Positions 16,863 through 29,575 of a stretch of 58,786 nucleotides of DNA are shown piece by piece. Both the position numbers and the translations under genes were made by a program. This DNA comes from an uncultured Candidatus Saccharibacteria bacterium (GTDB lineage: Bacteria; Patescibacteriota; Minisyncoccia; Phycocordibacterales; UBA5272): assembly GCA_964457775.1 (NCBI GenBank), contig CAYWEW010000008.1, positions 1-58,786 of the forward strand, written 5' to 3'. Numbering within the stretch: the stretch's first letter is position 1; each line of letters begins with the position of its first letter. Below the pieces are notes generated by a model that worked only from the letters and a program-made list of their open reading frames with translations, had not been told where the DNA came from and did not search any database.

Positions 16863-17951
16863 TTATTGTGTATTCTTTGCAAGTAAATCCCTAACATAAA
16901 CAAGTGCTACAACATACATACTTTCTGCCCAACCTAGAGGATTATTATCATTAGCTTTATCAGTATGTGAATACCACAGTTCAGGTATAAGACCATCTTT
17001 ATCGATTGTCTTTCCTGCTCTTTCTAAGTAGTCTTCTGCTTTTTCAAGATTACCCATTCGCGCATAAATAATTGCAAGCCATGCGAGTCCCATAGACCAT
17101 TCTGCCTCCTCACTATAACCATCTTTATTCTTATTATAATATCTGTCATTTCGATATCGTATTACACCCATATCTCGAGTAAGGAAATATTCTACATTTG
17201 AAAGTATAATTTCTGTCTCTTCTTTTGTTGTAACTTCAAATGGGAAAATAAGTGTGAGAAGCGCGAGATCACAAAAACGATTAGATGTTTCTCTTGGTAA
17301 AAGATTGCGCAATGTCTCCTCACCTCTTTCTATCATTCCCTCTGGGATAGTTACATATGATAATTTTGAAGCACACTTAAGTGCACAGACAACAGAACCA
17401 ATTGAAGAAGCTCTGACTTCTTGATTCTCTTCCCAAATACCTGAATCTTCATCCTTCCAATACTCAATATTATTCAAATAATTAACAAGCATCTGTACAA
17501 GTTCTTTTTCTTCATCTGTCTCCACAACATTATGTCCAGAAGTTTCGCAATCTGCAATAAGATACAGAACTTCACCAACGGCATCATTTTGTTTATTCCC
17601 CCACTCCTCCCAATATTCATCAAATGTTTCTGGATTATAGCGTGCGTGTATATACTGATAAGTTGCATATGGCGGCCTATTAGTTGCAGCCCAAGTTATT
17701 TTTTCTTTATGCTTTGCAAGAATTTGAAGAAGTGCTTTTGCTGTGTCTTTTACAACATCCATTTCACCTGTGTACTTAAATCCAAGTGTCATGAAATAAA
17801 TATCACGTAACCATGCTTTGTTATAACCAGTAGTTACATCAGATGCTGACGCGGTGAATAATCCAGTTGGGGCGCGAAGTTTCCTAACTTGATCTAAGTG
17901 CCACTTAATCGCAGATTCGAAATTGAAATTATTAAAAGAGCTAGTAGACAT
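16863..17951 (-). CDS. glycoside hydrolase family 15-like (alpha/alpha)6-barrel protein
   Basis: YNKAWLRDIYF, DSGIWEENQEVRASSIG, NPLGWAESMYV resemble GH15 glucoamylase catalytic-domain blocks. Confidence 0.65.
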   Translation of the reverse strand: MSTSSFNNFNFESAIKWHLDQVRKLRAPTGLFTASASDVTTGYNKAWLRDIYFMTLGFKYTGEMDVVKDTAKALLQILAKHKEKITWAATNRPPYATYQYIHARYNPETFDEYWEEWGNKQNDAVGEVLYLIADCETSGHNVVETDEEKELVQMLVNYLNNIEYWKDEDSGIWEENQEVRASSIGSVVCALKCASKLSYVTIPEGMIERGEETLRNLLPRETSNRFCDLALLTLIFPFEVTTKEETEIILSNVEYFLTRDMGVIRYRNDRYYNKNKDGYSEEAEWSMGLAWLAIIYARMGNLEKAEDYLERAGKTIDKDGLIPELWYSHTDKANDNNPLGWAESMYVVALVYVRDLLAKNTQ

Positions 17952-17962
17952 GATTTTTTATT

Positions 17963-18325
17963 TTATGCAGTGACTAAATATTTTTCATCACCACTTCTAG
18001 ATAATAATTTTTTTACTGCATCAGGCACTAATCTTGTAATTTCGCCTTCCCTTTTTCCAAGTTCTTCTTGTAATTCAAAATATTCAACCAATTTTGCAGC
18101 AGCTTGTTCCAAACGATAATCTTTCCCTTTGACTTCCTCTAGAAACTTCCTAGACGCTTCAACTTTATTATCACTTTCTTGAATAAGAAACATTACTCTA
18201 TCCAAAGCTCCCTGCATTGCAGATACCCTTTCTTGATATATCTTTGTTGGCAATTTTTCTTGTTGTATTGTTTCCATAATGATTAGAGTATACACCAAAT
18301 TATAAAACGCAACTACATTGTACAA
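17963..18325 (-). CDS. hypothetical coiled-coil protein
   Basis: 120-aa ORF. The likely true start is the internal METIQQEK (18277). Confidence 0.4.
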   Translation of the reverse strand: MYNVVAFYNLVYTLIIMETIQQEKLPTKIYQERVSAMQGALDRVMFLIQESDNKVEASRKFLEEVKGKDYRLEQAAAKLVEYFELQEELGKREGEITRLVPDAVKKLLSRSGDEKYLVTA

Positions 18326-18354
18326 ATAACCAAAAAGTCTTATTTCAGAATGAA

Positions 18355-18723
18355 TTATTTTTTAGGAAACCAAGGGAAAAATGCTTTTGTTTTGGACTTA
18401 TAAATCTGAAAATCTTTATTATCATCATATTTTTTCTCTAACATTGGAATACCTGATACATAAAGAATAAGAAAAGTTATTGTTAATGGTGACACAAGGA
18501 AAACAAGGTTAATAAAAATTGCATTTGAAAATGAAACAGTTGTCAAAAATATACCCCACCAAAAAGTCACTTCACCAAAATAATTTGGGTGTCTTGAATA
18601 CCTCCATAAACCAGTTTGCATAATTCCTCCTGTTTTTTGTTTAATAAAATCTGTTAATTGATAATCCGCAACTGTTTCAAAAGTTAAAACAAATAACTGC
18701 AAGAATTGATGAAGCAATACCAA
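18355..18723 (-). pseudogene. DUF1295 / steroid-5-alpha-reductase-like membrane protein, C-terminal remnant
   Basis: ADYQL..F......GGIMQTGLWRYSRHPNYFGEVTFWWG is the conserved C-terminal half of the family. TTG start right after an in-frame stop and a 9-nt homopolymer. There is no room for the N-terminal half. Confidence 0.5.
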
Positions 18724-18745
18724 AAAAAAATTTTACTTCCATATA

Positions 18746-19015
18746 TTATTTAGAAAACTTATCTATCCACCAATTCTTAAGAAAAGATAGCGAAAGTGTA
18801 GATAGTAAATATCCAATAGTTGGAATAAGTGCATTAAGTAAAAACTTCTCTACTCCAATAAAATACATTACTACCGAAGCAACGATATAGGTTATTACAA
18901 TAATCGAAACCCTACGGAATAAACTCGTTTCCCATGCTTTATTTTGTTCTACCTTTTTATTACGATTTTTGATTACTCCCAACTCCTCTTGTATCTGTTT
19001 AATTTGGTCTTCCAT
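18746..19015 (-). CDS. small two-helix membrane protein (hypothetical)
   Basis: 89 aa. Charged N-terminal helix followed by two hydrophobic helices. Confidence 0.4.
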   Translation of the reverse strand: MEDQIKQIQEELGVIKNRNKKVEQNKAWETSLFRRVSIIVITYIVASVVMYFIGVEKFLLNALIPTIGYLLSTLSLSFLKNWWIDKFSK

Positions 19016-19101
19016 ATCAATATATTATACCAGTTCTACCCTCCCGTGTAATTCGCTAAAGGTGGTTAGTAAATCGCATCGGGAGACGAAAATAGATTTG
19101 A

Positions 19102-19350
19102 TTGGTGTGCCTATCGGGATATTTGGTCACCGTTAAGGGTTTTCTTTTTTCGTCCTTTGGACTTAAACAAAACCTCTTAACCTCGACCCCGAGAAACGTC
19201 GACAAAATTGAGATGTAAAAATACTGCACCCAATTTTTACATCTCAATTTCGTAAACCGACGTTTCGTTCAAATCCCACGTAACAATGTTTGGACATTGT
19301 TACTGATAGCCACACCAAATGAAAAATCGCCTTAACAGCGATTTTTCATT
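19102..19350 (-). repeat. tRNA-His-linked structured module (tRNA 3'-end copies at both ends)
   Basis: 19102-19120 is identical (19/19) to 19350-19368, the tRNA-His 3' end. Inverted copies lie at 19268-19277 and 19305-19317. Internal helices: GAAACGTCG/CGACGTTTC and GGTC/GACC. Confidence 0.7.
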
Positions 19351-19426
19351 TGGTGTGCCTATCGGGATTTGAACCCGAACTGAGGGTTCCACAAACCCTA
19401 GTGCTAACCATTACACTATAGGCACC
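19351..19426 (-). tRNA. tRNA-His (GTG), encoded G-1 and CCA
   Basis: Manual cloverleaf: G-1, acceptor GTGCCTA/TAGGCAC, anticodon loop TTGTGGA, T-arm TCGGG-TTCAAAT-CCCGA, ACCA end. Confidence 0.9.
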
Positions 19427-19554
19427 ATCTCACTTCGAACATTTTTTACAAAACATTTGAGTGTAATTCCTGTGTGGAGCATGGAATTAGGACTTTACTC
19501 TAACACATTTTTAGAGTTTTAGGAAGGAGGAAATTAATATATATATATTTTAAT

Positions 19555-19709
19555 CAAGACTGGATTTGGTCACAAAACTCCTCACTTCGTTCGAAGTAGT
19601 TTCGCGACCCCTATTCAAATCCATCGTAAGTGACGCAGGTCACTTGCTTCTATGTTAGCAAAATAATAAATACCTATCTTGGATTACAAGATAGGTATTT
19701 ATTATTTTG
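19555..19709 (-). repeat. tRNA-Leu-linked structured module
   Basis: 19557-19568 = 19716-19727 (12/12, tRNA-Leu T-arm/acceptor). Core TTCGCGACCCCT at 19601-19612. Inverted T-loop copy at 19614-19623. Palindrome at 19626-19647. Long hairpin at 19660-19708. Confidence 0.7.
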
Positions 19710-19793
19710 TGCCCGAGACTGGATTTGAACCAGCACGCCGTTGCCAGCGCTACCACCTCAAGGTAGTGCGTCTACCAATTTCGCCACCCGGGC
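19710..19793 (-). tRNA. tRNA-Leu (GAG), long variable arm, no encoded CCA
   Basis: GCCCGGG acceptor, anticodon arm CTACC-TTGAGGT-GGTAG, T-arm CTGG-TTCAAAT-CCAG. 84 nt. Confidence 0.9.
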
Positions 19794-19845
19794 ATATTTT
19801 ATTTTTAAAAACCTTACTACACTTTATATTGCCATATTATATTTA

Positions 19846-19944
19846 GAAAATTGGTAGACTGCAATATTTTACCAATTAGCATCTTTCGCTTGCTAGCTAC
19901 AGATGTCTTCGAAGCCAAGCTTCTCGAGCCACCCGGGCATATTT
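19846..19944 (-). repeat. duplicated 5' fragment of tRNA-Leu interrupted by a ~45-nt module
   Basis: 19928-19944 = 19783-19799 (17/17: first 11 nt of tRNA-Leu plus upstream flank). D-arm-like ATTGGTA/TACCAAT copies at 19846-19880. The intervening 19906-19927 is the reverse complement of 36939-36960 (22/22). Confidence 0.6.
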
Positions 19945-19987
19945 CTTCTTTCGAAGTATTAAAATACTACCATAAATATGTCAAAAT

Positions 19988-20013
19988 AAAAACTCGTCTT
20001 TGGACGAGTTTTT
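19988..20013 (-). terminator. intrinsic terminator after rplS
   Basis: AAAAACTCGTC-TTTG-GACGAGTTTTT, flanked by A/T runs on both sides. Confidence 0.8.
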
Positions 20014-20021
20014 ATTTTTAA

Positions 20022-20450
20022 TTATGCTGTAACTTCTTCTACTGTTTCTTCAACGACTGCTTCTGTTGTTGTTGTACTCCCTTTCTTGATTACACGTACG
20101 TCCTTCTTCAACTTACGACGGACATCACGGAGTGCCTTGTCACGTACATAGTATAGCTTACTACGACGAGTACGAGCGCGACGAACGAGTTCAATCTTAT
20201 CAATCATAACTGAGTAAAGTGGGAATACACGTTCAACTCCTACACCTGAAGCTACACGACGAATAGTAAAAGTAGCACCAATTTCTGTGCCATGCTTACG
20301 AGCGAGAACCATACCTTCAAAAGCCTGAAGACGTGTCTTTCCATCAGCTTCCTTAATCTTATTCCACACACGAACAACATCTCCAGATGAGAAATCTAGC
20401 TCCTTACGTGAAGGAATGTCGACAGGTGTTAGTTTTATTGTTGTTTTCAT
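20022..20450 (-). CDS. rplS: 50S ribosomal protein L19 with C-terminal extension
   Basis: GDVVRVWNKIKE..GKTRLQAFEGMVLARKHG...FTIRR...GVERVFPLYS...IELVRR. Confidence 0.92.
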   Translation of the reverse strand: MKTTIKLTPVDIPSRKELDFSSGDVVRVWNKIKEADGKTRLQAFEGMVLARKHGTEIGATFTIRRVASGVGVERVFPLYSVMIDKIELVRRARTRRSKLYYVRDKALRDVRRKLKKDVRVIKKGSTTTTEAVVEETVEEVTA

Positions 20451-20531
20451 AGAAATGTCTTAGTAGAGAGATATTATCACAAAAATTGATGTTTTGCAAG
20501 AGGGCTTCCTCTTTCTTTCTTATGTTTTAAT

Positions 20532-21266
20532 TTATAAATCCACAGGGAAATTAAGGGCTTTTAAGCAATCCTTCATGTCCTTTGGAATTTCTGAAATAAT
20601 TGTCTCTGTCTTTTTACCTGATTGTTCCTCTGGAATTTCTATAGTTATTGAATATGCGTGGAGCATAGAGCGTGGAGCAACGTCTTTTCCATATGTAGAA
20701 CCATACAAATCATCACCTATAATTGGATGACGTATACCACGAAAATGTGCACGAATCTGATGAGTTCTTCCTGTTAATGGATAACATTCAACATATGAAT
20801 AATTCTTGCCATCTGGTGCCGTTGCGCGAGCCAATACCTTATAACGAGTGATTGCTTCTCTTTCTTCACCTCGAGCGTCTTGTGAGAACATATCTACTAC
20901 TGTACGTTTACGAAAATCACTCTTCGCTCTTGCAATTGGAAGTGAGATCATTCCAGTGTCATGCTTAATATACCCTTCTACGATTGTTCTGTATACCTTA
21001 CGAGCTGTGTGGTCACGAAATTGTTTTTTAAATGTTGTAAATGCAACATTATCTTTTGCAAGAACAAGTACTCCGGTTGTATTGCGGTCTAGTCGATGAA
21101 CGACCCCTTCGCGCCCTGCGTCCCCTATTCCTTTAACACCATAGGTTTCGTTCATCCAATTTGCAATTGTATATTCTTCTTGCCTATCATCAGGGTGCAC
21201 AATAATACCTGCTGGTTTATCAATAACAACAGCATGTATGTTCTCAAAGAGAATAGGGAATTTCAT
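20532..21266 (-). CDS. RluA-family pseudouridine synthase
   Basis: VIDKPAGIIVHP and the catalytic HRLDRNTTGVLVLAK motif. 244 aa, no S4 domain. Confidence 0.85.
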   Translation of the reverse strand: MKFPILFENIHAVVIDKPAGIIVHPDDRQEEYTIANWMNETYGVKGIGDAGREGVVHRLDRNTTGVLVLAKDNVAFTTFKKQFRDHTARKVYRTIVEGYIKHDTGMISLPIARAKSDFRKRTVVDMFSQDARGEEREAITRYKVLARATAPDGKNYSYVECYPLTGRTHQIRAHFRGIRHPIIGDDLYGSTYGKDVAPRSMLHAYSITIEIPEEQSGKKTETIISEIPKDMKDCLKALNFPVDL

Positions 21267-21315
21267 ATTTGTAAATACTAGCAGAAATTAAGGGGAGATG
21301 CGAGGGTTAATGCAT

Positions 21316-21484
21316 TGTGGATTCGGTCACCAAATATAGTCGCCATGCTCCTTATTTCGCGACCCCTCTTCGGTGCTACCATTTTTGTAAACAAAAATGG
21401 ACTTCGTTAGCACCTCAGTTCGAATCCTCTATTTCCTCAAAAAAACAAAATCAGCAGAAGTATAAATTCTGCTGATTGTTTTTG
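21316..21484 (-). repeat. tRNA-Val-linked structured module
   Basis: Core TTCGCGACCCCT at 21356-21367. Nested hairpin at 21372-21414. An 18-nt perfect inverted copy of the tRNA-Val 3' end (21419-21436 vs 21487-21504) brackets the terminator hairpin 21449-21477. Confidence 0.7.
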
Positions 21485-21557
21485 TGGGAAATAGAGGATT
21501 CGAACCTCTGACCTTCGCTGTGTAAAAGCGCTGCTCTACCAACTGAGCTAATCTCCC
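21485..21557 (-). tRNA. tRNA-Val (TAC)
   Basis: GGGAGAT acceptor, D-arm GCTC/GAGC, anticodon loop TTTACAC, T-arm AGAGG-TTCGAAT-CCTCT. 73 nt. Confidence 0.9.
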
Positions 21558-21619
21558 TTCATTGGTACTACAATACTACCTTATTTCAAAAATTTTTGCT
21601 AGTATACTAGGGTGCATAT

Positions 21620-21694
21620 GCCCTTGTAGTTAAATGGATATAACTGCGGACTTCTAAGCCGTTATTCGTGGTTCGATTCCACGCGAGGGCACCA
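21620..21694 (+). tRNA. tRNA-Arg (TCT) with encoded CCA
   Basis: GCCCTTG acceptor, anticodon loop CTTCTAA, T-arm CGTGG-TTCGATT-CCACG, ACCA end. There is an A-G mismatch at the base of the anticodon stem. Confidence 0.85.
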
Positions 21695-21732
21695 ATACAA
21701 AATACACAGGATTAATCCTGTGTATTTTGTAT
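21695..21732 (+). terminator. intrinsic terminator after tRNA-Arg(TCT)
   Basis: ATACAAAATACACAGGA-TTAA-TCCTGTGTATTTTGTAT, a perfect 17-bp stem. Confidence 0.8.
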
Positions 21733-21757
21733 TGTTTCCTATTTGTCCCCATTTTTC

Positions 21758-22114
21758 CTACATCTCTAAAATATCTTTTTTTGGTGTAGGGCTACCAAGT
21801 TTCTTTCTGTAAAATTCAACTATATCACTTTGTATATTTATTAGTATTTTATCTATACCTTTTTCCACCGAGTCAACCCCAAGGACACTTATAATTTTTT
21901 CCTTTTGTTCTTCAGAAGTAAAATGGTGTAAAAATGGGGGGAGTCCTAAACTATGCAAAATATCATAAAGAAATGATCCTCTAATACTCCTAAGAGCGTC
22001 ATCAGAAAAGCCTGGATAGAGTTCTTTGAGTTTCATTAGGGTTGCTTTTTCTAATAGCTCAAGTGGTTCAGGATTAGATTCAATATTATTTTGTGGTGAC
22101 TCAAATTTATTCAT
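21758..22114 (-). CDS. hypothetical protein
   Basis: 118-aa ORF. No recognised motif. Confidence 0.4.
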   Translation of the reverse strand: MNKFESPQNNIESNPEPLELLEKATLMKLKELYPGFSDDALRSIRGSFLYDILHSLGLPPFLHHFTSEEQKEKIISVLGVDSVEKGIDKILINIQSDIVEFYRKKLGSPTPKKDILEM

Positions 22115-22136
22115 AATATGTCCAGTATATCATTCT

Positions 22137-22370
22137 CTACTCATACCCAACCTTTCTCCCTAACCTATCCTCCAACTTTCTTCCTAACATTCTCTTTGCG
22201 TCCCCCCGTCCACAAACAACAACTTCATCTTTTCCTATTTTGTGTACAATCATATCAAGTACCTCATTAATTGCTCGGGTAACTTCTTTCTCAATAAGGT
22301 GCTTTCCGATTGGTATCATCTCCTTATCAAAAACAATATAGTCATCGTTTATACAAATATGATGTGTCAT
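22137..22370 (-). CDS. hypothetical small protein
   Basis: 77-aa ORF, co-oriented and closely spaced with its neighbours. Confidence 0.35.
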   Translation of the reverse strand: MTHHICINDDYIVFDKEMIPIGKHLIEKEVTRAINEVLDMIVHKIGKDEVVVCGRGDAKRMLGRKLEDRLGRKVGYE

Positions 22371-22385
22371 TACTATTAGTATATA

Positions 22386-22964
22386 TTATTTAGAGAAAAA
22401 ATAGATTGCTATAAACCCAAGTATGCCCACAATCCACAAAATTTTGTCTCCTTTATTTAAAATCATTTGCTTTGCTCTTTGACCGAATCTATTTGATAAA
22501 TATGCTACTAAGAAAAATCTTGCCCCTCTTCCCATAATAGAAGCAACAATGAAGGTGAATAAATTAATAGAAAAAAGACCTCCAGCAATAGTAAAAACTT
22601 TATAAGGAATAGGAGTAAACGCTGCTATAAGTATCGCCATGAAGGCATTATCGTTAAAAAGTTTTCCAACATGTGTGACCTGTTCTTCTAAGTTATAAAA
22701 CTGGATTACAGGCAATCCTATAAATTGATAAAAATAATACCCAATTGCGTAGCCAAATATTCCACCAAGAACTGAGCCTGCTGTAGTAATACTTGCGATT
22801 CTTACCCACGCTTTTTTTATATGATGAGAGAGAATTGCAATAATCAATACATCTGGTGGAACTAAGAAAAATGATGACTCTGTAAAAGCAACCCAAAACA
22901 AAATAGCCTCTGATCTTTTGTGTTCAGCAAACTTTTCTACCCAGGAAACCATTTTTTTTATCAT
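22386..22964 (-). CDS. DedA/YqaA-family membrane protein
   Basis: 192 aa. FFLVPPDVLII...GRGARFFLVAYL pattern, 4-5 TM helices. Confidence 0.65.
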   Translation of the reverse strand: MIKKMVSWVEKFAEHKRSEAILFWVAFTESSFFLVPPDVLIIAILSHHIKKAWVRIASITTAGSVLGGIFGYAIGYYFYQFIGLPVIQFYNLEEQVTHVGKLFNDNAFMAILIAAFTPIPYKVFTIAGGLFSINLFTFIVASIMGRGARFFLVAYLSNRFGQRAKQMILNKGDKILWIVGILGFIAIYFFSK

Positions 22965-22973
22965 AATGATTAG

Positions 22974-23360
22974 CTATTTGAGTCTAGTTCCATTTATTAA
23001 ATTCTTTGATGGGTTAAATAGAGCAAGACCATTTTCATCACTTCCTGCGAGTATCATTCCCTGTGATTCGTGTCCGCGTAACATACGAGGTGCTAAATTT
23101 GTCACGAATGGAAATTGTTTATTCAGTAGTTCTTCAGGTTGAGTAAACTGACGAATACCAGATAATATCTGACGAGGTTTTTCTTCGTTAAAATCTACTT
23201 GAAGAATATATAATTTATCTGCACCCTCTACAACGTTGACAGAAAGCACTGTACCGACTTTTATTTCTATTTTTGCAAAGTCATCAATGGTTGCATATAC
23301 AGGTTTAATTTCTTGTGGAATAGCTATATCTTCCTCTTTTTTTATTTCTTCTTCATTCAT
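22974..23360 (-). CDS. tRNA-binding domain protein (CsaA/EMAP-II-like OB fold)
   Basis: FAKIEIKVGTVLSVNVVEGADKLYILQVDF...SGIRQF...MLRGHESQGMILA. Confidence 0.8.
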   Translation of the reverse strand: MNEEEIKKEEDIAIPQEIKPVYATIDDFAKIEIKVGTVLSVNVVEGADKLYILQVDFNEEKPRQILSGIRQFTQPEELLNKQFPFVTNLAPRMLRGHESQGMILAGSDENGLALFNPSKNLINGTRLK

Positions 23361-23543
23361 ATATAGATAAACTTACCATATCTTCTTATTTATTAAAAGC
23401 TAAAAATTGTTTTAGGTACGCGAAGCATAGAAATTTTCACAGGAAGACGTATATCTAGTACGGCGACCTGTTAAAATTTCGTAACTGAATCAACAGATTC
23501 ATGTCCTGGACAAAAAATAAATAAAATAATTTTTAGCTTTTAA

Positions 23544-24005
23544 TTACCAATTATCGTTTGATGACGTCTCTTCCTCATCGTCTTCTTCTCCAATAAACTC
23601 TTCGTCGGATGTGCTTGGTCCATTTATCTTGTCCAAGTATCTCTGTAAAACAATTGCAGCAGCTTGATCGTCCACTTCATGATTACCTTCATTTCCTGGT
23701 TGTTTACGAGCCTCGACAGTTGAGTACCATTCCTTTTCAAACACAACAATAGTATCTATTCCGTTTTCTATTTGTAAACCAAAAGCACGAGCGTCTTTTG
23801 CTATTTTGTTTGGCTTACCATTTCCATCTACACTCTCTCCAATTACAACAGTACCGAATTTCATTTCACGAATAAGCTCCAAAGTATCTTTTAATAATGT
23901 TCCATCGTTCGGTGCAATCATAAGAGGAAAGGCCATACGTCCATCATCATCTGATTGTGCGAAACCAACTTTTTTTGAACCAAAATCTATTCCGAGGTAT
24001 TTCAT
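23544..24005 (-). CDS. ruvX: Holliday junction resolvase-like RuvX/YqgF with acidic C-terminal tail
   Basis: MKYLGIDFGSKKVGFAQSD...DERFSTVEA-like (WYSTVEARK)...AAAIVLQRYLD. Confidence 0.85.
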   Translation of the reverse strand: MKYLGIDFGSKKVGFAQSDDDGRMAFPLMIAPNDGTLLKDTLELIREMKFGTVVIGESVDGNGKPNKIAKDARAFGLQIENGIDTIVVFEKEWYSTVEARKQPGNEGNHEVDDQAAAIVLQRYLDKINGPSTSDEEFIGEEDDEEETSSNDNW

Positions 24006-24030
24006 ATACTTATAAGTATACTACAAAATT

Positions 24031-25038
24031 TTAATTATTTTCCTGTTCATAAACCATTTTAGAGACATTGGAAATTATCTTTAAGAGTGTGGGTATATCT
24101 TTTCCGTGCGTCATAAAACATATAATAAAAGGGTCTTCAGGAACATAAACAATTCCACAATCATGAAGTAAAATTTTTTTCTCTGTATCAAAAGCACCAA
24201 ATTTATTTGCAACAACGATGTCTTTTGGAATCCCAGAAACAATCCCTTCTTTGAAGGTGCTTTTTGTTAAAAGTGATAATAAATATTCTGAATGCTCTTC
24301 ATTAAGATATGAAGAGTTATATAGCATTCTTAAAAAGAAAGAGTACTCTCTTGAGGAAATTTTGTAAGTATCTGAATAAATGGGGTTGGACAAATTTGTT
24401 ACATTAAACAAATCATCAACATATCCTTTTTGCAAAAAATTCAAAAGTAGATCTTTTGCTCCATTATCAGAAAATTCTAGCATTATTTGAACAAGTTCCT
24501 CCACAGAATAATCCTTACCGATAACTAGATTACTATCATTGTTCCCTGTTATTTTTTTATTAATTTCTGCTATCTCCTTTGTATAAATAAGTCTTTTATT
24601 TAAGAATTTATTATCACCTTCTATTTGTTTGTAGACAGCGATAGCTATTGGTAATTTGAATAAACTAGCAGGGGAAAAGCTATCCCCTTCATTCACACCA
24701 AACCAAAGTGGAGAATTTAAATCTTTAAAATAAAATGAGTACTCATATAAATTTCCATTACTTTTTTCTTCTTCTAAATAATCAGTAATGTTATTTCTTA
24801 AATCCTTAAAAATACCGACATCTGTTGCCGGAGACGAAACAGAACCAAGAAGAGGGTTAATCAAGGAAAAATTACCACCAGCGCGGACGTTTTTGAACGT
24901 ACTAATAAATTTATTAAAATTATTTTTTTGTACTTGTTCACCAAGGAGATAACCCAGGAAAAAGAAAACTACCACAGCAATAACAATATGTACATTATGT
25001 TTTTTATACTGTAGTAATTTATCTATATGAATTTTCAT
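24031..25038 (-). CDS. class A beta-lactamase-like serine hydrolase, membrane anchored
   Basis: SLFK (SxxK), SDN, and KFG in the KTG position. N-terminal TM helix. Confidence 0.6.
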   Translation of the reverse strand: MKIHIDKLLQYKKHNVHIVIAVVVFFFLGYLLGEQVQKNNFNKFISTFKNVRAGGNFSLINPLLGSVSSPATDVGIFKDLRNNITDYLEEEKSNGNLYEYSFYFKDLNSPLWFGVNEGDSFSPASLFKLPIAIAVYKQIEGDNKFLNKRLIYTKEIAEINKKITGNNDSNLVIGKDYSVEELVQIMLEFSDNGAKDLLLNFLQKGYVDDLFNVTNLSNPIYSDTYKISSREYSFFLRMLYNSSYLNEEHSEYLLSLLTKSTFKEGIVSGIPKDIVVANKFGAFDTEKKILLHDCGIVYVPEDPFIICFMTHGKDIPTLLKIISNVSKMVYEQENN

Positions 25039-25167
25039 GTTTTATATAATGATATCACCTCCTGTAAAAATGCCGTAGCTAATCCTGTGTATTTTATATT
25101 CATAATTATATCCCTGGTATAAAAATAAATAATTTAATATTAAGTGTGAGGATTATAAGCCGACTCA

Positions 25168-25995
25168 CTATCTAATCTTTATTGACCAATCTTTATCATC
25201 TGCATACTTCTCGGCCTTTTCGTTTATCATATATTTTTTACGCAATTCTTCAATTGAAATACTTTGGTCTAAGAAACCAATTTTTTGGGCCAACTCATCA
25301 GAATACGCAGGCATTAGAACTTTATAACTTAAAGGAATTCTACTTTTTGTAATATCATTTATATGAGAAACGATGTTTGTTGTACAAGTGCTAGTTAAAG
25401 TATTATAAAATTCTGGCTCTTGAGAAAGTTTATTGGAACGATGTAACATAGAAACAAAAAGCGTCCTCATTTTTTCTTTTTCAGTCATTATAGGATATAA
25501 GAATACTTTGTCCTTACGATAATTTGATCTCAGCTTAATTACATCTCTTTCGTCAGCCACAACATAAACAAGTTCGAACTGTCTCAATATTCCTTTAAGT
25601 GGAGAATAGGACTCTCCTTTTTCCTTTCTTATTTCAACAGAGACAGAAACATATTCCCCTCCCTCAAACCCAAAAGAAACCAAAGTATGAGCTAACCCAA
25701 AACCATGACCAGAAAAAGGTTCGACCATGAACCACACTGATTCTAATTTATTTAAATCAAAAGTTTTATCATAAAAAGAAACGTCGTAATCAGTAGTTGT
25801 TCTGTAATTTATATTTCTAATATTTTTAATATGAACATTATCACCATTAAATTCCGAATATGATAAAACTTCTTGATCTTTGGTCCAGTCTCTATCCAAT
25901 GATGGTCTAATAAAAATAATTAGCAATGAATACAAGACAACAAGGACACCAATTAAAACTAATAAATACTTTAAAAATTTCTTTAGGGTTTTCAT
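25168..25995 (-). CDS. DUF4105-like membrane-anchored protein
   Basis: 275 aa. N-terminal helix, then RPSLDRDWTKDQ...VHIKNIRNINYRT, as I recall for DUF4105/Lnb N-terminal domain proteins. Confidence 0.45.
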   Translation of the reverse strand: MKTLKKFLKYLLVLIGVLVVLYSLLIIFIRPSLDRDWTKDQEVLSYSEFNGDNVHIKNIRNINYRTTTDYDVSFYDKTFDLNKLESVWFMVEPFSGHGFGLAHTLVSFGFEGGEYVSVSVEIRKEKGESYSPLKGILRQFELVYVVADERDVIKLRSNYRKDKVFLYPIMTEKEKMRTLFVSMLHRSNKLSQEPEFYNTLTSTCTTNIVSHINDITKSRIPLSYKVLMPAYSDELAQKIGFLDQSISIEELRKKYMINEKAEKYADDKDWSIKIR

Positions 25996-26030
25996 GGGTA
26001 TATTGTACTGTGGAAATGGAGGTGTAGCAA

Positions 26031-26188
26031 AGGGTGAGATATTCGGTCACAAATCTGCCTCGTTTCACTCGAAGCAGATTCGCGACCCCTATTCTCATCT
26101 CTCGCAAGTGACGCAGGTCACTTGCTACAATACATCGCTTGTGAATAGAAAAAGTACAAGGTGGTAACCTTGTACTTTTTCTATTCAA
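26031..26188 (-). repeat. tRNA-Ser-linked structured module, distal copy (A)
   Basis: AGGGTGAGATATTCGG (26031-26046) copies the tRNA-Ser T-arm. Core at 26079-26090. Palindrome GCAAGTGAC-GCAG-GTCACTTGC at 26104-26125. Hairpin at 26143-26186. Confidence 0.7.
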
Positions 26189-26351
26189 GCGGATTGGGTG
26201 AGATTCGTTCACAAAACTACCTCACTTCGTTCGAAGTAGTTTCGCGACCCCTATTCGAACCTCCGTAAACCAAAGCAGTTTGGTTTACTACCTTGTAAAC
26301 CGCACAGCAAATGAAAAATACCGAGCAGTAACTCGGTATTTTTCATTTGTG
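26189..26351 (-). repeat. tRNA-Ser-linked structured module, proximal copy (B)
   Basis: 26189-26207 matches tRNA-Ser 26351-26369 at 18/19. Core at 26241-26252. Hairpin at 26265-26288. Long hairpin 26300-26354 includes the tRNA's terminal CCGCA. Confidence 0.7.
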
Positions 26352-26438
26352 CGGATAGGGTGAGATTCGAACTCACGGTCCGATTGCTCAGACGACAGTT
26401 TTCAAGACTGTTGCTTTAGACCACTCAGCCACCTATCC
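26352..26438 (-). tRNA. tRNA-Ser (TGA), long variable arm, no encoded CCA
   Basis: GGATAGG acceptor, anticodon arm ACAGT-CTTGAAA-ACTGT, variable arm CGTCTGAGCAATCGGACC, T-arm GTGAG-TTCGAAT-CTCAC. Confidence 0.9.
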
Positions 26439-26531
26439 CTATAATCTTTCGATTAAGCGTTACTATATCATATTTTTATATTTTTTGAAACATTACATCA
26501 TTATATATATGTATGTTAAAATTAAATTATT

Positions 26532-26939
26532 ATGCGTTTCGTAATTAAATTTTTTGATAGATTAGAGGATCATGTTCGAGGAGGGCTTTCTAGATTTCCT
26601 TTAGTTTATTCACTTATAGGTGGCACTGGTGTAATTCTATTTTGGAGAGGTATTTGGCATACAGCAGATAACTTACAAGTAATGACATCTTGGGGTAAAG
26701 TACTTTTTTCTGGCCCTGGTTCTACTATTTTAGGTCTCCTTATACTGCTCATGACAGGTCTTTTTGTTTCTGTATTTATTGGAGATCAAATAATTATGTC
26801 TGGACTAAAGCATGATAAAAAATTAATTGAAAAATCAGAAGATGAAATAGAGGAAGAGTTAGTAGAATTACAAAAAGAAAAACAAATTCTACAAAAAATA
26901 GAAATTAGTTTGGAGAAAATGCAAGAGGACAAAAACTAA
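26532..26939 (+). CDS. small membrane protein with C-terminal coiled coil (hypothetical)
   Basis: 135 aa. Two TM helices, then a Glu/Lys-rich helix. Confidence 0.45.
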   Translation: MRFVIKFFDRLEDHVRGGLSRFPLVYSLIGGTGVILFWRGIWHTADNLQVMTSWGKVLFSGPGSTILGLLILLMTGLFVSVFIGDQIIMSGLKHDKKLIEKSEDEIEEELVELQKEKQILQKIEISLEKMQEDKN

Positions 26940-26941
26940 AT

Positions 26942-26975
26942 AATAAAAACCATGCACATGTGCATGGTTTTTATT
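26942..26975. terminator. bidirectional intrinsic terminator between convergent genes
   Basis: AATAAAAACCATGCA-CATG-TGCATGGTTTTTATT. Confidence 0.8.
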
Positions 26976-26987
26976 ATTTATTGAATT

Positions 26988-27923
26988 TTATTCCCAACTA
27001 AAACCTCTTCCGAAATGTCCCCAAGTGCATGTGTCTTTATATTTAACTTCATCTAACTTCAAATCCTTTCTTATTCCTTTTGGACTAAGATCGTACCCTG
27101 TAATTTCATTTTCTACTCCGTCGATAATTGCAACTGCCATGACTGGTTCACTCTTTCCGATTGCATATGCAATTTTTGTTTCGACTTCTTTTGCATTATG
27201 TTTCTTTAATAATTCAACTGCAATCTTTCGGGCCACATAAGCACCAGAGCGATCCACTTTTGTATAATCTTTACCTGAAAAAGATCCACCCCCTATTGTA
27301 TGCTCTGGGCCATAATTATCTACTATAAGTTTTCTTCCTGATAATCCAGTGTCAGCGTCGAATCCTCCCAAGTCCCATTCCCCTGCTGGATTAATGAGAT
27401 ACTCTTTTGCTTTAATTATTTTTTGGACGAGTGGGAGTAAATCTACATTCTTTGAATTTTGAAAACTGACCACTACTGTAGTAACTTCATCATTATCAAT
27501 AGTTACCTGCGTCTTGCCGTCATATGGATACACTTCAAAAACTTTTTGACATAGATTACGAGCGAGTTCATATTCAAGTGGAAGAAAAGTTTCTGTTTCA
27601 CTCGTTGCATAACCTTTCATAATTCCCTGATCCCCTGCACCACCTGTATCTACACCTTGTGCTATTTGTGGACTCTGTAATGAGATGTTACTCAACACTT
27701 TAAAATCATTTCCTACAATACTCTGCACCAAATCTTCTACATTTGGTTTTGACAATGATGTTACTTCGCCATTAATAGTAACCAAATTGTGTCCTCCCAT
27801 CACTTCGATTGCACATCGACTGTTCTTATCATTTTCTAAATATGCATCTAATATACTGTCTGCGATATAATCACATATTTTATCTGGGTGCATAGGACTC
27901 ACGAATTCTGCTGTTTTTATCAT
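26988..27923 (-). CDS. metK: S-adenosylmethionine synthetase (short form, 311 aa)
   Basis: SPMHPDKICDYIADSILD, GAGDQGIMKGYA, GGGSFSGKDYTKVDRSGAY. Confidence 0.9.
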   Translation of the reverse strand: MIKTAEFVSPMHPDKICDYIADSILDAYLENDKNSRCAIEVMGGHNLVTINGEVTSLSKPNVEDLVQSIVGNDFKVLSNISLQSPQIAQGVDTGGAGDQGIMKGYATSETETFLPLEYELARNLCQKVFEVYPYDGKTQVTIDNDEVTTVVVSFQNSKNVDLLPLVQKIIKAKEYLINPAGEWDLGGFDADTGLSGRKLIVDNYGPEHTIGGGSFSGKDYTKVDRSGAYVARKIAVELLKKHNAKEVETKIAYAIGKSEPVMAVAIIDGVENEITGYDLSPKGIRKDLKLDEVKYKDTCTWGHFGRGFSWE

Positions 27924-27934
27924 ACGTTTAAAAA

Positions 27935-28100
27935 TTAAAATTCCTCATTCACTTAAGATGAGGAAAGATAGAGATGACTAGTCTTTATCTTTCCATTTAA
28001 TACTTGCGTATTATCTGGCTGGATGTAGCACCTTCTTATTGCTAAGTGGTTGCTGATGGGTCATTGAGCCAGTTGCTCTCGCCACACTCTTGATAAATAA
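27935..28100 (-). promoter_or_regulatory. SAM-I (S-box) riboswitch with terminator, upstream of metK
   Basis: Minus strand reads UUAUCAAGAG-UGUGGCGAGAGCAACUGGCUCAAUGACCCAUCAGCAACC...AAGGUGCUACAUCCAGCCAGAUAA (P1 UUAUC/GAUAA). This is followed by hairpins 27962-27994 and 27941-27965 plus a U-run. Confidence 0.8.
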
Positions 28101-28186
28101 CTATTGCTAGTTATATTTTTATAATACACATAAAATAATAAAAAGTAAATTAATTAGTGAAAGCATTCAGTGTATACTCTTTAGAT

Positions 28187-28747
28187 ATGAAAAAAGTATT
28201 TATGATACATGGACTAGAAGGAACACCAAATGGCGGGTGGCGTCCTTGGCTTATGAGTGAACTACAAAAGATGGACATATATGCTTGTTCCCTATCATTG
28301 CCAAATGAGGCAAATCCGATTTGTGGTGAATGGATAGAAGAAATTAGTCGCCTGGTGGAAAGAAACAATGAAGATGAAATTTATTTAGTCGGCCACAGTC
28401 TTGGTGTTCCGACTATATTACATTACCTAGAACAAAAAACTTTAGGTACAGAAATTGCGGGAGCTGTCTTAGTTTCTGGTCCATCACAAAAAATAAATAT
28501 TGAAAAAATTGAGCACTTCCTCGATAAACCTTTTGATTTTGAAGCTATCACCTTAAAGTGCAGTAAATTCTCTGTTATTCATGGTGATGATGATTCTGTC
28601 GTCCCCCTTTCTGATGCAGCTTTTCTATCAGAAAAATTAAAATGTGATTTGGTAATTGTGCACGGTGGAAAACATTTAAATGGTTCTGCTGGGTTCACTC
28701 AACTTCCAGAATGTCTACAGGAATTACAAACGATGTTTCTAAGCTAA
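28187..28747 (+). CDS. alpha/beta hydrolase, YdeN/RBBP9-like serine hydrolase
   Basis: MIHGLEGTPNGGWRPWL...LVGHSLGVPTILHYLE (GxSxG)...IHGDDD. The ORF track starts at GTG 28157. Confidence 0.7.
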   Translation: MKKVFMIHGLEGTPNGGWRPWLMSELQKMDIYACSLSLPNEANPICGEWIEEISRLVERNNEDEIYLVGHSLGVPTILHYLEQKTLGTEIAGAVLVSGPSQKINIEKIEHFLDKPFDFEAITLKCSKFSVIHGDDDSVVPLSDAAFLSEKLKCDLVIVHGGKHLNGSAGFTQLPECLQELQTMFLS

Positions 28748-28788
28748 ACCTAGCCAAAAGCGTTAAAATAGTGTAGTATCATACAATC

Positions 28789-28860
28789 GCTCTCGTAGTT
28801 CAATGGATAGAATTCAAGTTTGCGGTACTTGCGATGCAGGTTCGATTCCTGCCGAGAGCA
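28789..28860 (+). tRNA. tRNA-Arg (GCG)
   Basis: GCTCTCG acceptor, anticodon arm CAAGT-TTGCGGT-ACTTG, T-arm GCAGG-TTCGATT-CCTGC. 72 nt, no CCA. Confidence 0.85.
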
Positions 28861-29050
28861 CAGAATACAAAAAGACCCCTCTTCTGAGAGGTCTTTTTGT
28901 ATTCTGTGCTCTCGGAGTACGACAACTGCTTGTCGTACGTCAGGAATCGAAAGTCCGGAGTATGTTTTTGTAGCAACAAAAACAACGAGGAGCGGGAGGC
29001 GAGAAATTTTTGTGACGACAAAAATTTACTTGTCGAAGATTCCTGCCGAG
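28861..29050 (+). repeat. tRNA-Arg(GCG)-linked structured module (divergent core)
   Basis: A 30-bp near-perfect palindrome (28852-28881 / 28886-28915) includes the tRNA acceptor 3' strand. Inverted T-arm copy CAGGAATCGAA at 28941-28951. Direct copy ATTCCTGCCGAG 29039-29050 = 28845-28856. Confidence 0.65.
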
Positions 29051-29575
29051 TTAAATAAACTCTCTTATTTTTTTAACAGAACCTTCAACACTATTATTTC
29101 CTACATCTATCTTTATTTCATTATTCATTTCCCCTTCCATAACATAATCGTACAGCATCTTAAATTCATCTTCAGGAACTGAATATTCTCTTTTTAAATT
29201 TCTATCCCACAATATTTCATAATCAGCACACAGAAGAAACGCATGATATTCATAATTATATTTTTCGCACAATTCTAAAATATCTTTCATACTGCCATGA
29301 GGACCAGACTTTACACAAGAAAAAAGACCTTCGGTTACAATAGTGTATGTTCCATTTTTTAAATAATTTTCTAAAATGGAAAGATAGTTCTTATATGCAA
29401 ACTCATGTTCATCTTCTGTAATATCCAAAATCTTTCTGTGTCCTAAATGAAAACCCCATCGGAATTTATCTAACTCAAGATAAGCAAGTCGCCCATCAAT
29501 AGTACTCATAAACTCTTTTGTAATAGTTCCTTTGCCACTTGCTGGTGAGCCACGAAAAATAAATACTTTTTTATT
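29051..29575 (-). CDS. P-loop kinase/ATPase (AAA_33 / zeta-toxin-like fold)
   Basis: MNKKVFIFRGSPASGKGT Walker A. 174 aa from the internal Met. Confidence 0.55.
   Translation of the reverse strand, partial: NKKVFIFRGSPASGKGTITKEFMSTIDGRLAYLELDKFRWGFHLGHRKILDITEDEHEFAYKNYLSILENYLKNGTYTIVTEGLFSCVKSGPHGSMKDILELCEKYNYEYHAFLLCADYEILWDRNLKREYSVPEDEFKMLYDYVMEGEMNNEIKIDVGNNSVEGSVKKIREFI

Follow-up and report, generated by a model that had tools for sequence, protein, structure and literature searches.

Several described systems resemble, each in part, the units considered here. Williams is said to have sorted integration into tRNA genes by sublocation class (in NAR, in 2002), and the direct repeat from T-loop to tRNA 3′-end is reportedly the footprint of T-loop integrases. 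The attC site of integrons and the attP(+) hairpin of CTX phage are folded single-strand recombination sites that depend on IntI or XerCD. PATEs of the IS200/IS605 kind have subterminal hairpins, guides of 4–5 nt, no target duplication and a TnpA (Y1) partner, and they insert 3′ of a target of 4–5 nt. MITEs carry fixed terminal inverted repeats and a short target-site duplication of fixed length, and class C group II introns are terminator-targeting retroelements with ribozyme domains and an RT ORF.

We analyzed a 58.8-kb stretch of DNA (‘the window’, meaning the whole stretch), in which ARAGORN and Rfam called six tRNAs. An earlier note on this DNA had counted six structured units at five of the six tRNA genes; we saw the same number, with tRNA-Arg-tct followed by a terminator only. 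These units at tRNA 3′-ends look like an apparently undescribed family of miniature mobile elements homing to tRNA genes.

In the canonical order, the tRNA is followed by a terminator-like hairpin, a segment X′a (reverse complement of tRNA nt 65–82), a hairpin hp, a segment X′b (reverse complement of nt 54–64), a core hairpin and a direct copy of the tRNA starting from nt 57; hp of the canonical unit is a covarying 9-bp hairpin with a CTGC loop. The inverted copy of T-loop and T-stem that the earlier note had described is present (GGGATTTGAA in the His unit, TGGATTTGAA in the Leu unit), but it is wider than was thought: X′a and X′b (together X′) form a bipartite reverse complement of nt 54–82, split by hp between nt 64 and 65. 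In every A-, C- and H-type unit hp takes this same place, with the reverse complement of nt 65 ahead of it and that of nt 64 after it. The features of the window are as follows (bit scores come from a covariance model built from units of relatives and used for both window and relatives).

19351-19425, minus strand: tRNA-His(gtg), intact target; its nt 57-76 plus 1 (19350-19368) are the proximal repeat copy
19318-19350, minus strand: His unit, terminator-like hairpin AATGAAAAATCGC-TGTTAAG-GCGATTTTTCATT, directly 3′ of CCA
19305-19317, minus strand: His unit, X′a TGGTGTGGCTATC, reverse complement of the acceptor 3′ strand plus CCA with one mismatch
19279-19304, minus strand: His unit, hp of H-type, loop TCCAAA, at the nt 65/nt 64 split of the inverted copy
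19267-19278, minus strand: His unit, X′b TGGGATTTGAAC, reverse complement of the T-stem 3′ strand plus T-loop
19193-19266, minus strand: His unit, additional long hairpin, characteristic of H-type units
19125-19190, minus strand: His unit, H-type core hairpin GGGGTCGAGG...CGGTGACC
19102-19120, minus strand: His unit, distal direct copy of nt 57-76 plus 1 (19/19)
19709-19793, minus strand: tRNA-Leu-gag, intact target
19557-19708, minus strand: Leu unit, A-type (91.1 bits), with hairpin 19660-19708, degenerate X′a 19648-19659, hp 19626-19647 (CTGC loop), X′b 19613-19625, core 19568-19612 and distal copy 19557-19567
21484-21557, minus strand: tRNA-Val-tac, intact target
21316-21482, minus strand: Val unit, B-type (31.4 bits), with hairpin 21440-21482, contiguous inverted copy of nt 53-74 without hp 21418-21439, hairpin 21368-21417, core 21325-21367 and short distal copy 21316-21324
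21620-21694, plus strand: tRNA-Arg-tct, terminator only, no unit
26351-26438, minus strand: tRNA-Ser-tga, intact target
26189-26348, minus strand: Ser unit 1, A-type, proximal (83.3 bits), with hairpin 26309-26348, degenerate X′a 26292-26308, hp 26265-26291, X′b 26253-26264, core 26207-26252 and distal copy 26189-26206
26032-26188, minus strand: Ser unit 2, A-type, distal, with more decayed flanks (96.7 bits), with hairpin 26142-26188, hp 26104-26125, X′b variant GAGAGATGAGAAT 26091-26103, core 26045-26090 and distal copy 26032-26044
28789-28861, plus strand: tRNA-Arg-gcg, intact target
28863-29050, plus strand: Arg-gcg unit, C-type (left part, 31.1 bits), with hairpin 28863-28904, X′a 28905-28915, hp 28916-28939 (CTGC loop), X′b 28940-28951, hairpin 28952-28995, diverged core 28996-29034 and distal copy 29035-29050

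The sequence matches reported by the earlier note were reproduced: the His arms 19305-19330 and 19338-19363 pair at 25 of 26 positions; second hairpins are present in the His (19280-19303, GTAACAATGTCCAAACATTGTTAC) and Leu (19626-19647, GCAAGTGACCTGCGTCACTTAC) units; direct copies are exact, 19/19 for His (19102-19120 = 19350-19368) and 12/12 for Leu (19557-19568 = 19716-19727); the plus-strand core TTCGCGACCCCT occurs exactly at 19601, 21356, 26079 and 26241. The His unit, which the covariance model scored weakly (8.9 bits), ends in ACCA; its X′a lengthens the terminator-like hairpin into the tRNA, and the outer stem of this hairpin is common to the hairpin of Ser unit 1. The extra long hairpin of the H-type was seen also 3′ of tRNA-Arg-gcg in the relative L076. 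Over the whole 58.8-kb window no place besides the six units scored with the model. Exact 12-mer direct repeats at most 300 nt apart numbered 32 in the window versus 0–7 in shuffles.

Considering other genomes, we found the core, AGGGGTCGCGAA-hairpin-TTKGTGACC, at 65 loci in ∼37 Patescibacteria genomes, always 34–117 nt 3′ of a tRNA, on the tRNA strand, with tRNA hosts of at least 14 amino-acid types. The covariance model gave 118 hits in the 65 loci: 89 of the 118 had a tRNA directly upstream on the same strand, none had one on the opposite strand, and the remaining hits were at locus edges, in tandem arrays or 3′ of tRNA remnants. In the 53 units with exact core, with hosts of 14 amino-acid types, the tRNA 5′ of the unit was always called intact, and the distal direct copy began in the T-loop, at nt 57–59, in nearly all. 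Among tRNAs not used for fetching of loci, 30 of 68 had a unit; about half or more of a genome’s tRNA genes are occupied. The earlier note had made its case depend on further copies elsewhere, and well over 100 are present in the fetched relatives. The units are ∼130–250 bp long with no ORF inside; the complementary segment of a unit takes 11–29 nt, and the flanking target copy, of variable length, 8–29 nt. Variants of core and hp are shuffled among tRNA types, and near-identical cores were found in distant MAGs.

The view that no described family is involved was borne out. In the window only tRNAs and a SAM riboswitch passed the Rfam 15 gathering score, with nothing over the modules; in E-value mode the modules gave only sub-threshold microRNA and sRNA noise on hairpins, and the tRNA, tmRNA and mascRNA models of Rfam did not match them. 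Search of the literature by keyword and by sequence string brought no description of these units. Hammerhead-like (GAAA/CUGA), T-box and H/ACA-like bipartite guide structures, proposed by eye, were rejected: there were no model hits, and the context is bacterial without partner proteins.

Double changes were observed at all nine pairs of hp and at four upper-core pairs, and 95.6% of cells in hp and core were paired, versus 77% in shuffles and ∼40% with a slid partner; judging by these changes, hp and core hairpins are selected as structures. Folding energy was far below that of shuffled controls (z of −9.7 for the Leu unit and −13.8 for the His unit). Sense and antisense strands of the units had equal folding energy, and strand assignment by folding energy was dropped as both strands fold equally well.

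Orthologous sites in syntenic relatives were seen both filled and empty. At tRNA-His the window has a unit and the site of L031 and L050 is empty; the flank of the distal His copy in the window, ATCAAATCTATTTTCGTC, matches ACAAATCTATTTTGGTC, which is located directly 3′ of tRNA-His in L050. The Leu-gag site is filled in the window and in L012, empty in L031, L019, L050 and L076, and has a degenerate B-like unit in L157. The Val-tac site has the B-type unit in the window, none in L031 and an A-type unit in L076. The Arg-tct site, empty in the window, is filled in L031, L050 and L076, and both states of the Ser-tga site exist among the window and its relatives (L031, L019, L050, L012 and L076). 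One and the same tRNA was occupied by different sub-families in different genomes, and one sub-family was found at different tRNAs. Units stand in tandem at tRNA-Ser of the window and in L068, L018, L027 and L038; older truncated units lie 3′ of newer ones, and nested copies are present. As to close relatives, a metagenome scan with the RluA neighbor gave L076 only, a look-up with L19 for strain-level comparison gave one diverged relative besides the source assembly, and look-ups with S20 and MetK gave contigs that were too short or non-syntenic.

Comparison with the described systems could now be made. Like T-loop-sublocation integrative elements, the units are inserts with an intact tRNA on one side and, on the other, a direct repeat that begins in the T-loop and stops shortly beyond the 3′-end; the tRNA is regenerated, and relatives have empty attB sites. 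Unlike those elements, they are only 130–250 bp long and have neither integrase nor ORF; a single family serves at least 14 amino-acid types and occupies about half or more of tRNA genes, and inside, the att segment is present once more in inverted form, with a hairpin dividing it. The direct repeat and the empty sites of that class are present in the units, and its internal integrase is absent. The likeness to attC and CTX attP(+), a structural one only, consists in an imperfect hairpin with conserved base and a top variable in sequence yet paired, in strand-specific mismatches and in an inverted repeat through which the target site is re-created as a duplex; the target of the units, however, is a tRNA gene rather than attI or dif, and the duplex so formed is specific to the tRNA and broken by a side hairpin. 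PATEs too are small, non-coding and strand-specific, with subterminal hairpins and an internal segment complementary to the flanking target; the units differ by the 11–29 nt length of this segment and by a target copy of 8–29 nt flanking the element, and no TnpA/Y1 transposase was found among the scanned window ORFs. MITEs and REP/BIME repeats are likewise multi-copy, hairpin-forming, non-coding, strain-polymorphic and nested. They are dispersed, though, while all units share one orientation and lie at tRNA 3′-ends; in contrast to MITEs, the ‘terminal inverted repeat’ of a unit derives from the target and differs per copy, and the target duplication varies between 8 and 29 nt. For a class C group II intron there was neither an Rfam intron match nor an RT among window ORFs. 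On these features the units could be assigned neither to an Rfam family nor to MITEs (by their ends), PATEs, tRNA-like RNAs or class C group II introns.

We consider it moderately probable that the units are miniature non-autonomous insertion elements without a protein of their own, homing to the T-loop/3′-end of tRNA genes of Patescibacteria (Paceibacteria/Nomurabacteria-like CPR bacteria) and acting probably as folded DNA handled by an enzyme encoded in trans. Miniature integrative elements at T-arms were one of two readings offered in the earlier note, and it is the better supported one, given the T-loop start, the empty sites, the tandem and nested copies and the turnover of sub-families. 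An inserted copy sits between the intact tRNA gene and a second, non-functional copy of nt 57–76; the tRNA stays whole and the element brings a terminator-like hairpin. Such a geometry results from recombination within the T-loop, or else from an insertion at the end of the tRNA that duplicates 20 nt of the target. The working form would be the tRNA-sense DNA strand, folded, either single-stranded or extruded. Its inverted copy (X′a-hp-X′b) would pair with the tRNA 3′ segment and so restore the target in double-stranded form. The conserved base of the core hairpin, GGTCGCGAA/TTTGTGACC, in which two G.T wobbles can form on the tRNA-sense strand only, would lie right next to the T-loop and would be the recognition site for the enzyme encoded elsewhere, possibly a tyrosine/Xer-like recombinase or an HUH-type nuclease.

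Such an enzyme was sought near the units. Absence of integrase, transposase and RT genes nearby had already been pointed out, and indeed no gene for a recombinase, transposase, RT or HUH protein was present among 50 scanned ORFs of the window. Several candidates in relatives were rejected: (i) a Phage_CRI rolling-circle Rep beside the unit of L034 is confined to this locus; (ii) a large serine recombinase adjoins tRNA-Ser in L071 and has one homologue, in L032, with neither copy bounding a unit by an att repeat; (iii) other cargo ORFs near units are housekeeping or of unknown function. Neither an autonomous transposon with the same ends (in ∼0.5 Mb of loci or in the viral collection) nor an excised or free form of a unit was seen.

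The mobile-element reading is strained at one point: the two inverted segments, on either side of a shared hairpin, agree with the neighboring tRNA in every case, also when a single sub-family is present at two tRNAs, and a fixed mobile sequence does not explain this. Possible routes to the match would be separate lineages for each tRNA, correction against the target or copying from it. We considered also that the inverted copy might be imported with a donor allele, both direct copies being local, since the single X′a mismatch of the His unit coincides with the tRNA-His allele of L050; yet only 5 of 36 mismatches corresponded to a natural allele, with 3.7 expected, and therefore this idea is left without support.

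The second reading of the earlier note, a structured RNA in tRNA sense, fared worse. It would be a mimic, decoy or antisense partner of the 3′ half of the neighboring tRNA, functional for example in 3′ processing, CCA addition or regulation, and it would fold as a reduced tRNA: X′a-hp-X′b and the distal copy giving acceptor stem and T stem, with hp in place of the D and anticodon arms and the core hairpin in the T-loop. In all A-, C- and H-type units hp is exactly at the place of the tRNA body, between an acceptor-5′-like and a T-5′-like strand, and hp and the upper core covary strongly. Read in tRNA sense, and only so, the core helix GGUCGCGAA/UUUGUGACC contains G.U pairs; the earlier note was right on the orientation, although there are two such pairs, both invariant, and not one. 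X′b (11 nt) is still complementary to the adjacent tRNA even where X′a has decayed, mismatches in X′ tend to be wobble-compatible transitions (14 vs 5, a hand count) and some units, those of Cys type, have no terminator ahead.

In most units, however, a terminator-like hairpin stands between the tRNA and the conserved module, and conserved promoter-like features are absent. X′a was intact (at most one mismatch in 9) in 22 of the 53 units, in only nine of them with a full distal acceptor copy, and its decay was independent of the decay of the acceptor part of the distal copy (9/13/15/16, Fisher p = 0.78); a division into two structural classes, with intact X′a anticorrelated with a long distal copy, was not significant. 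More than half of the units have lost the acceptor pairing between the two, which is essential to the tRNA-mimic fold. Divergence from the tRNA affected either X′ or the distal copy alone (18:0 and 57:0), with 0 joint changes among 75 differences and no compensatory changes. Given the terminator that usually lies ahead of the module, and the lack of any covariation between inverted and distal copies, a functional RNA is less likely. Also, the antisense strand folds just as well, no Rfam family matches, copies are tandem, nested and truncated, and sites empty in close relatives indicate that the module is dispensable. An acceptor stem and T stem with an inserted domain could be drawn in tRNA sense, as for the tRNA-like domain of tmRNA, viral TLS and mascRNA; in the units, in contrast, the insertion is in the T-loop and the acceptor pairing has decayed in most copies. 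We regard the functional RNA as unlikely. Against the mobile-element reading, in turn, hp, X′b and core are intact in units with decayed X′a, which hints at constraint or homogenization after insertion, and orthologous units were kept in L001 and L032 although terminator stems had fully diverged.

Could the units be plain att scars, attL plus attR arms left after deletion of integrase islands or prophages from tRNA T-loops? Integrases that target the T-loop classically leave a direct repeat of this kind, from T-loop to tRNA 3′-end, islands of 1–6 kb adjoin units in L034, L053, L066, L035, L038 and L071, the large serine recombinase of L071 abuts tRNA-Ser and, in L066, a 190-nt stretch with 99% identity overlaps the unit and flanks 3.2 kb of cargo. 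Still, independent decay of unrelated islands would not yield one hp-core architecture with the same hairpins at ≥14 amino-acid types in ∼37 genomes. Where kilobase-sized cargo is present, at a few loci, it has the tRNA on one side and a unit that was already complete on the other; this unit retains its own degenerate tRNA end and hairpin where it faces the island, therefore the island was inserted between the tRNA and a pre-existing unit. No shared integrase was found in the island cargo near units of relatives, no full-size integrase element was bounded by unit ends and the core pattern had 0 hits in 2.9 million viral contigs, so a phage origin was discarded as well. We hold att scars, which the earlier note had kept as a variant, to be very unlikely.

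Template switching at replication, with the terminator palindrome and the T-loop TTCGAA as turn-around points of an in situ direct-inverted-direct triplication and with hairpins spread by gene conversion, would account for the order of tRNA end, inverted copy and direct copy with a palindrome per turn (the product of two switches), for X′ and distal copy both derived from the local tRNA sequence, for an X′ template that was genomic DNA with trailer and not mature tRNA with CCA (e.g. L002) and for the uninterrupted inverted copy of B-type units, but it appears highly improbable, leaving unexplained the conserved core and hp at fixed positions, the discrete sub-families common to distant genomes and the hairpin that arrived with the insertion where the empty allele has none (His), and requiring several independent events per locus while the units are uniform.

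Returning to the mobile-element reading, one could speculate that the units are nucleic-acid-guided homing elements, with DNA-level, protein-in-trans, reprogrammable targeting in CPR bacteria and with a sister family at tRNA 5′-ends; this extension is doubtful, though possible. X′a and X′b around the scaffold hairpin hp would constitute a built-in guide, next to which the core would be a putative conserved protein-binding hairpin. The guide would pair with the displaced sense strand of the tRNA gene, leading to insertion at the T-loop/3′-end, and each new target would serve to rewrite it, so that one sub-family could fit any tRNA. A conserved scaffold with flanking tRNA-matching segments is the expected trace of programmable, base-pairing-guided insertion. 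If true, the units would be a tRNA-specific, protein-free addition to the guided mobile elements (IS200/IS605, IS110 with its bridge RNA, group II introns) and would point to a dedicated enzyme of CPR bacteria acting in trans.

For practical purposes, the units account for broken contigs and for odd ‘pseudo-tRNA ends’ close to tRNAs in MAGs of CPR bacteria; they are markers of strain-level variation and should be masked or modeled in predictions of ncRNAs and of prophages and att sites. Few known genomes are as small and streamlined as those of CPR/Patescibacteria, yet units are found at about half or more of their tRNA genes; therefore, the units are either very successful parasites of essential genes or are used by the cell.

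Six modules were found behind five of the six tRNA genes of the window, and their layout, read in tRNA sense, is that described in the earlier note. The 25 of 26 pairing of the His hairpin arms and the direct copies of the tRNA 3′-end (19/19 for His, 12/12 for Leu) proved exact, and TTCGCGACCCCT, the plus-strand form of the core, does occur at 19601, 21356, 26079 and 26241 as claimed. Fold energies of the units were well under those of shuffled controls (z of −9.7 for Leu and −13.8 for His), and close 12-mer direct repeats numbered 32 in the window versus 0–7 in shuffles. The impression that the modules match no described RNA family was borne out, Rfam having no family over them. A covariance model, R1, built from 68 units, matched the window at the known module sites only.

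The family is large; it is restricted to CPR bacteria, where it occurs only at tRNA 3′-ends. An exact-pattern scan (AGGGGTCGCGAA, 18–40 nt, TTKGTGAMC) of 185 579 species genomes gave 75 loci, 65 of them in Patescibacteria (about 37 MAGs); the core occurred in Paceibacterota, Nomurabacteria, Parcubacteria, Saccharibacteria-labelled MAGs and one Gracilibacteria. The other 10 matches, from high-GC genomes, were taken as chance because none had an adjoining tRNA. The core was absent from the viral contigs searched. In CPR loci it lies 34–117 nt (mostly 85–100) downstream of a tRNA on the same strand; the tRNA types are Lys, Asp, Pro, Gly, Cys, Leu, Trp, Val, Ser, Arg, Gln, Met and Glu, to which the covariance model added Phe. 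Among the loci fetched from Patescibacteria relatives for comparison (handles beginning with L), R1 found 118 copies: 89 had a tRNA directly upstream on the same strand, none had one on the opposite strand, and the remainder were at locus edges, in arrays or downstream of tRNA remnants. A unit was carried by 83 of the 122 tRNAs in these loci, and by 30 of 68 if only tRNAs not used to fetch the locus are counted.

The canonical (A-type) unit has the order tRNA, terminator-like hairpin, X′a, AG, hp, CG(T), X′b, A, core, distal copy. X′a and X′b form an inverted copy of the adjoining tRNA 3′ segment, split by the small hairpin hp, which always separates the reverse complement of nt 65 from that of nt 64. 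X′a is the reverse complement of nt 65 to about nt 82 and contains the trailer; therefore, its template was DNA rather than mature tRNA. X′b is the reverse complement of nt 54–64, its TCGAA (variant GAGAA) portion being part of the constant element. The terminator-like hairpin is variable and rarely missing; its outer stem is often ATACAAAAA...TTTTTGTAT, and in some units it takes the form of the GCGAAGC mini-hairpin. The A-type hp has a 9-bp stem and a CTGC loop; the core consists of GGGGTCGCGAA, a variable hairpin and TTTGTGACC; the distal copy, sometimes preceded by a GAAY filler, is a direct tRNA copy starting at nt 57–59. Double changes were seen at all nine hp pairs and at four upper-core pairs, and covariation was strong, with 95.6% of cells paired versus 77% for shuffles and about 40% after sliding the partner by 1–3 columns. 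The base helix of the core is invariant and includes two G·U pairs, which exist in tRNA sense only. Other sub-families depart from this plan as follows.

Sub-families of units other than A-type
B-type (window Val): uninterrupted inverted copy; a further hairpin ahead of the core
C-type (window Arg-gcg): diverged core
H-type (window His, L076 Arg-gcg): hp with another loop, a long additional hairpin, and GGGGTCGAG...GGTGACC as the core

Filled and empty sites in the window and in relatives show that the units behave as insertions; L031, L019, L050, L012 and L076 are syntenic with the window.

Filled and empty tRNA sites
Val-tac: filled in the window (B-type) and L076 (A-type); empty in L031
Leu-gag: filled in the window, L012 (two units) and L157 (degenerate, B-like); empty in L031, L019, L050 and L076
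Arg-tct: filled in L031, L050 and L076; empty in the window
His: filled in the window; empty in L031 and L050

The empty Val-tac site of L031 consists of the tRNA, 46 nt and then the RluA start codon. At the His site, the window flank past the distal copy is orthologous to the flank directly 3′ of tRNA-His in L050; therefore, the hairpin is part of the insertion, and a duplication of the last 19 nt of the tRNA marks its bounds. Repeated insertion at one tRNA is shown by tandem arrays and by older, truncated units that lie behind newer ones. A single tRNA site carries different sub-families in different genomes and the H-type is present at different tRNAs; whatever the sub-family, the local tRNA is matched in every case by both the inverted and the direct segment.

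Individual loci showed further rearrangements. In L076 (8480–9160; window counterpart 21300–21700) tRNA-Val-tac and its unit are inverted relative to the RluA gene, as compared with the window and L031; the remnants behind new units in this locus are reduced to the 3′ half of an older core with its distal copy. L016 (560–790, plus strand) has tandem tRNA-Gln genes, of which the upstream copy is a pseudogene; two hairpins and a core, without an inverted copy, separate nt 54 from nt 57 of its T-loop. It appears to be a direct insertion of the core into the T-loop, tolerated because a second, intact tRNA-Gln lies 22 nt further on. In L012 a small insert, CCGTCTACAGGTGTCGACTAATTTACCAGTCGAC, breaks the core right after GGG at two places of one genome (downstream of tRNA-Leu-gag and of tRNA-Arg-tct), which suggests yet another nested hairpin element. 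The sole unit-free tRNA of the window, tRNA-Arg-tct, is followed by a palindrome with 26-nt arms that starts within the CCA end (21688–21739, plus strand); its outer stem, ATACAAAAT, is similar to hairpins of units elsewhere, and it could be a solo unit remnant or merely a common terminator type.

Of 53 units, 31 had a degenerate X′a and 29 had lost the acceptor part of the distal copy, the two losses being independent (Fisher p = 0.78). X′ still matches the tRNA at positions where the distal copy departs from it (18:0), and the distal copy does so where X′ departs (57:0); therefore, X′ and the distal copy have each diverged from the tRNA sequence on their own, with no compensatory co-variation of the two. 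Much better kept, in units that were found via their cores, are hp, X′b, the core and the initial 8 nt of the distal copy; constraint, homogenisation or ascertainment may account for it.

The earlier note had also allowed for an RNA made in tRNA sense. One could cite for it the two G·U pairs specific to the sense strand, the placement of hp where the tRNA body would be and the lean of changes in X′ towards wobble-compatible ones; all three are also compatible with a strand-specific folded-DNA substrate, and folding energy did not differ between strands. A DNA-level element is favoured by the terminator-like hairpin normally standing between the tRNA and the conserved part, by dispensability of the unit in close relatives, by nesting and truncation of copies, by the tRNA-like acceptor pairing not being maintained and by the lack of a conserved promoter feature at the units.

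T-loop-targeting integrases have a direct-repeat boundary in the T-loop, as do the units. As computed for the His unit, the sense strand of such a DNA element would fold into a rod with a hairpin tip at one end, followed by a duplex in which X′ pairs with the tRNA 3′ segment (hp branching off to the side, one helical turn away from nt 54), a 7-nt bulge and finally the core hairpin, its conserved base abutting the T-loop. The rod is like folded single-strand recombination sites (attC, CTX attP), and the unit resembles the guide–target pairing of IS200/IS605; given these likenesses, we propose that a folded, non-autonomous element is inserted site-specifically by a putative enzyme encoded elsewhere and acting in trans. 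The route could be a crossover within the tRNA or insertion after the tRNA with target duplication. A donor-like allele in His X′a, considered as a hint on the route, did not generalise.

No insertion enzyme was found among 50 ORFs of the window, and relatives had only isolated neighbours, a rolling-circle Rep and a large serine recombinase with one homologue.

Enzyme genes and a duplication near units
L034, 751–1790, minus strand: Phage_CRI ORF (filamentous-phage G2P-type rolling-circle Rep), within the 3 kb that separate tRNA-Leu-caa from a displaced unit
L071, 5561–7072, plus strand: large serine recombinase gene abutting a tRNA gene, its 3′-end overlapping tRNA-Ser
L032, 2608–3597, minus strand: homologous large serine recombinase gene, abutting a tRNA gene
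L066, 170–359 and 3535–3724: 190-nt stretch (99% identity) duplicated around a 3.2 kb cargo (IucA/IucC-like, hydrolase, solute-binding protein)

The Rep is the sole HUH-type protein seen near a unit and is without a homologue in the other loci; the recombinases could not be linked to the units and belong to ordinary islands sited at these tRNA hotspots. The duplicated stretch of L066 overlaps a unit and reaches slightly past both its sides; it looks as if a circle with one unit had recombined with a resident unit.

A second, different module family was observed on the 5′ side of tRNA genes.

5′ modules
Window, 19794–19942, minus strand: precedes tRNA-Leu-gag; repeat ATATGCCCGGGTGGC at 19928–19942, inverted D-arm GTCTACCAATTT at 19848–19859
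Relatives: L017, L030, L032, L041, L053 (two in tandem), L057, L064 and L075

Such a module starts with a direct copy of tRNA nt −3 to +11, a TCGAGAAGCTTGGCTTCGAAGA hairpin and a second hairpin, and ends with a direct copy of D-arm nt 14–21, sometimes an inverted copy of nt 13–24, an AT-rich stretch and the real tRNA. L157, with a 96% identical neighbouring L19 gene, is without the tRNA-Leu-gag 5′ module. The TCGAGAAGCTTGGCTTCGAAGA motif and second hairpin also occur at 36939–36985 (plus strand), within the loop of a hairpin GCAACAGATTTTTG...CAAAAATCTGTTGC, in a non-coding stretch of ∼600 nt from a PilB-like ATPase gene to ruvB with no tRNA near; Rfam had no family over this stretch.

As to the wider context, window positions 17176–30450 are 100% identical to contig JACCDG011579085.1 of GCA_013558375.1. 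The genes dnaN, dnaA and yidC are at 43790–47919, dnaA and dnaN placing the replication origin near 46.5–47.1 kb; the four minus-strand unit-bearing tRNAs are co-directional with replication and the unit-bearing Arg-gcg gene is head-on. A SAM riboswitch (60.3 bits; 27982–28099, minus strand) lies upstream of a short S-adenosylmethionine synthetase gene (26988–27923, 311 aa), and a cluster with a VirB4/TraG-like ATPase and an SLT transglycosylase is situated among unknown ORFs at 47.9–58.6 kb.

Among known kinds, the units come nearest to tRNA T-loop integrative elements, folded-hairpin recombination sites, PATEs/MITEs and tRNA-like RNAs. They lack at least one defining feature of the integrative elements, of PATEs and MITEs and of tRNA-like RNAs; the comparison with folded-hairpin sites covered structure, in which there is a resemblance. 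Searches of a paper library, by keyword and by sequence string, found no description of the family. We classified the units as small non-autonomous, site-specific insertion elements; that they represent a new guided-targeting mechanism is improbable, though it is a real possibility.
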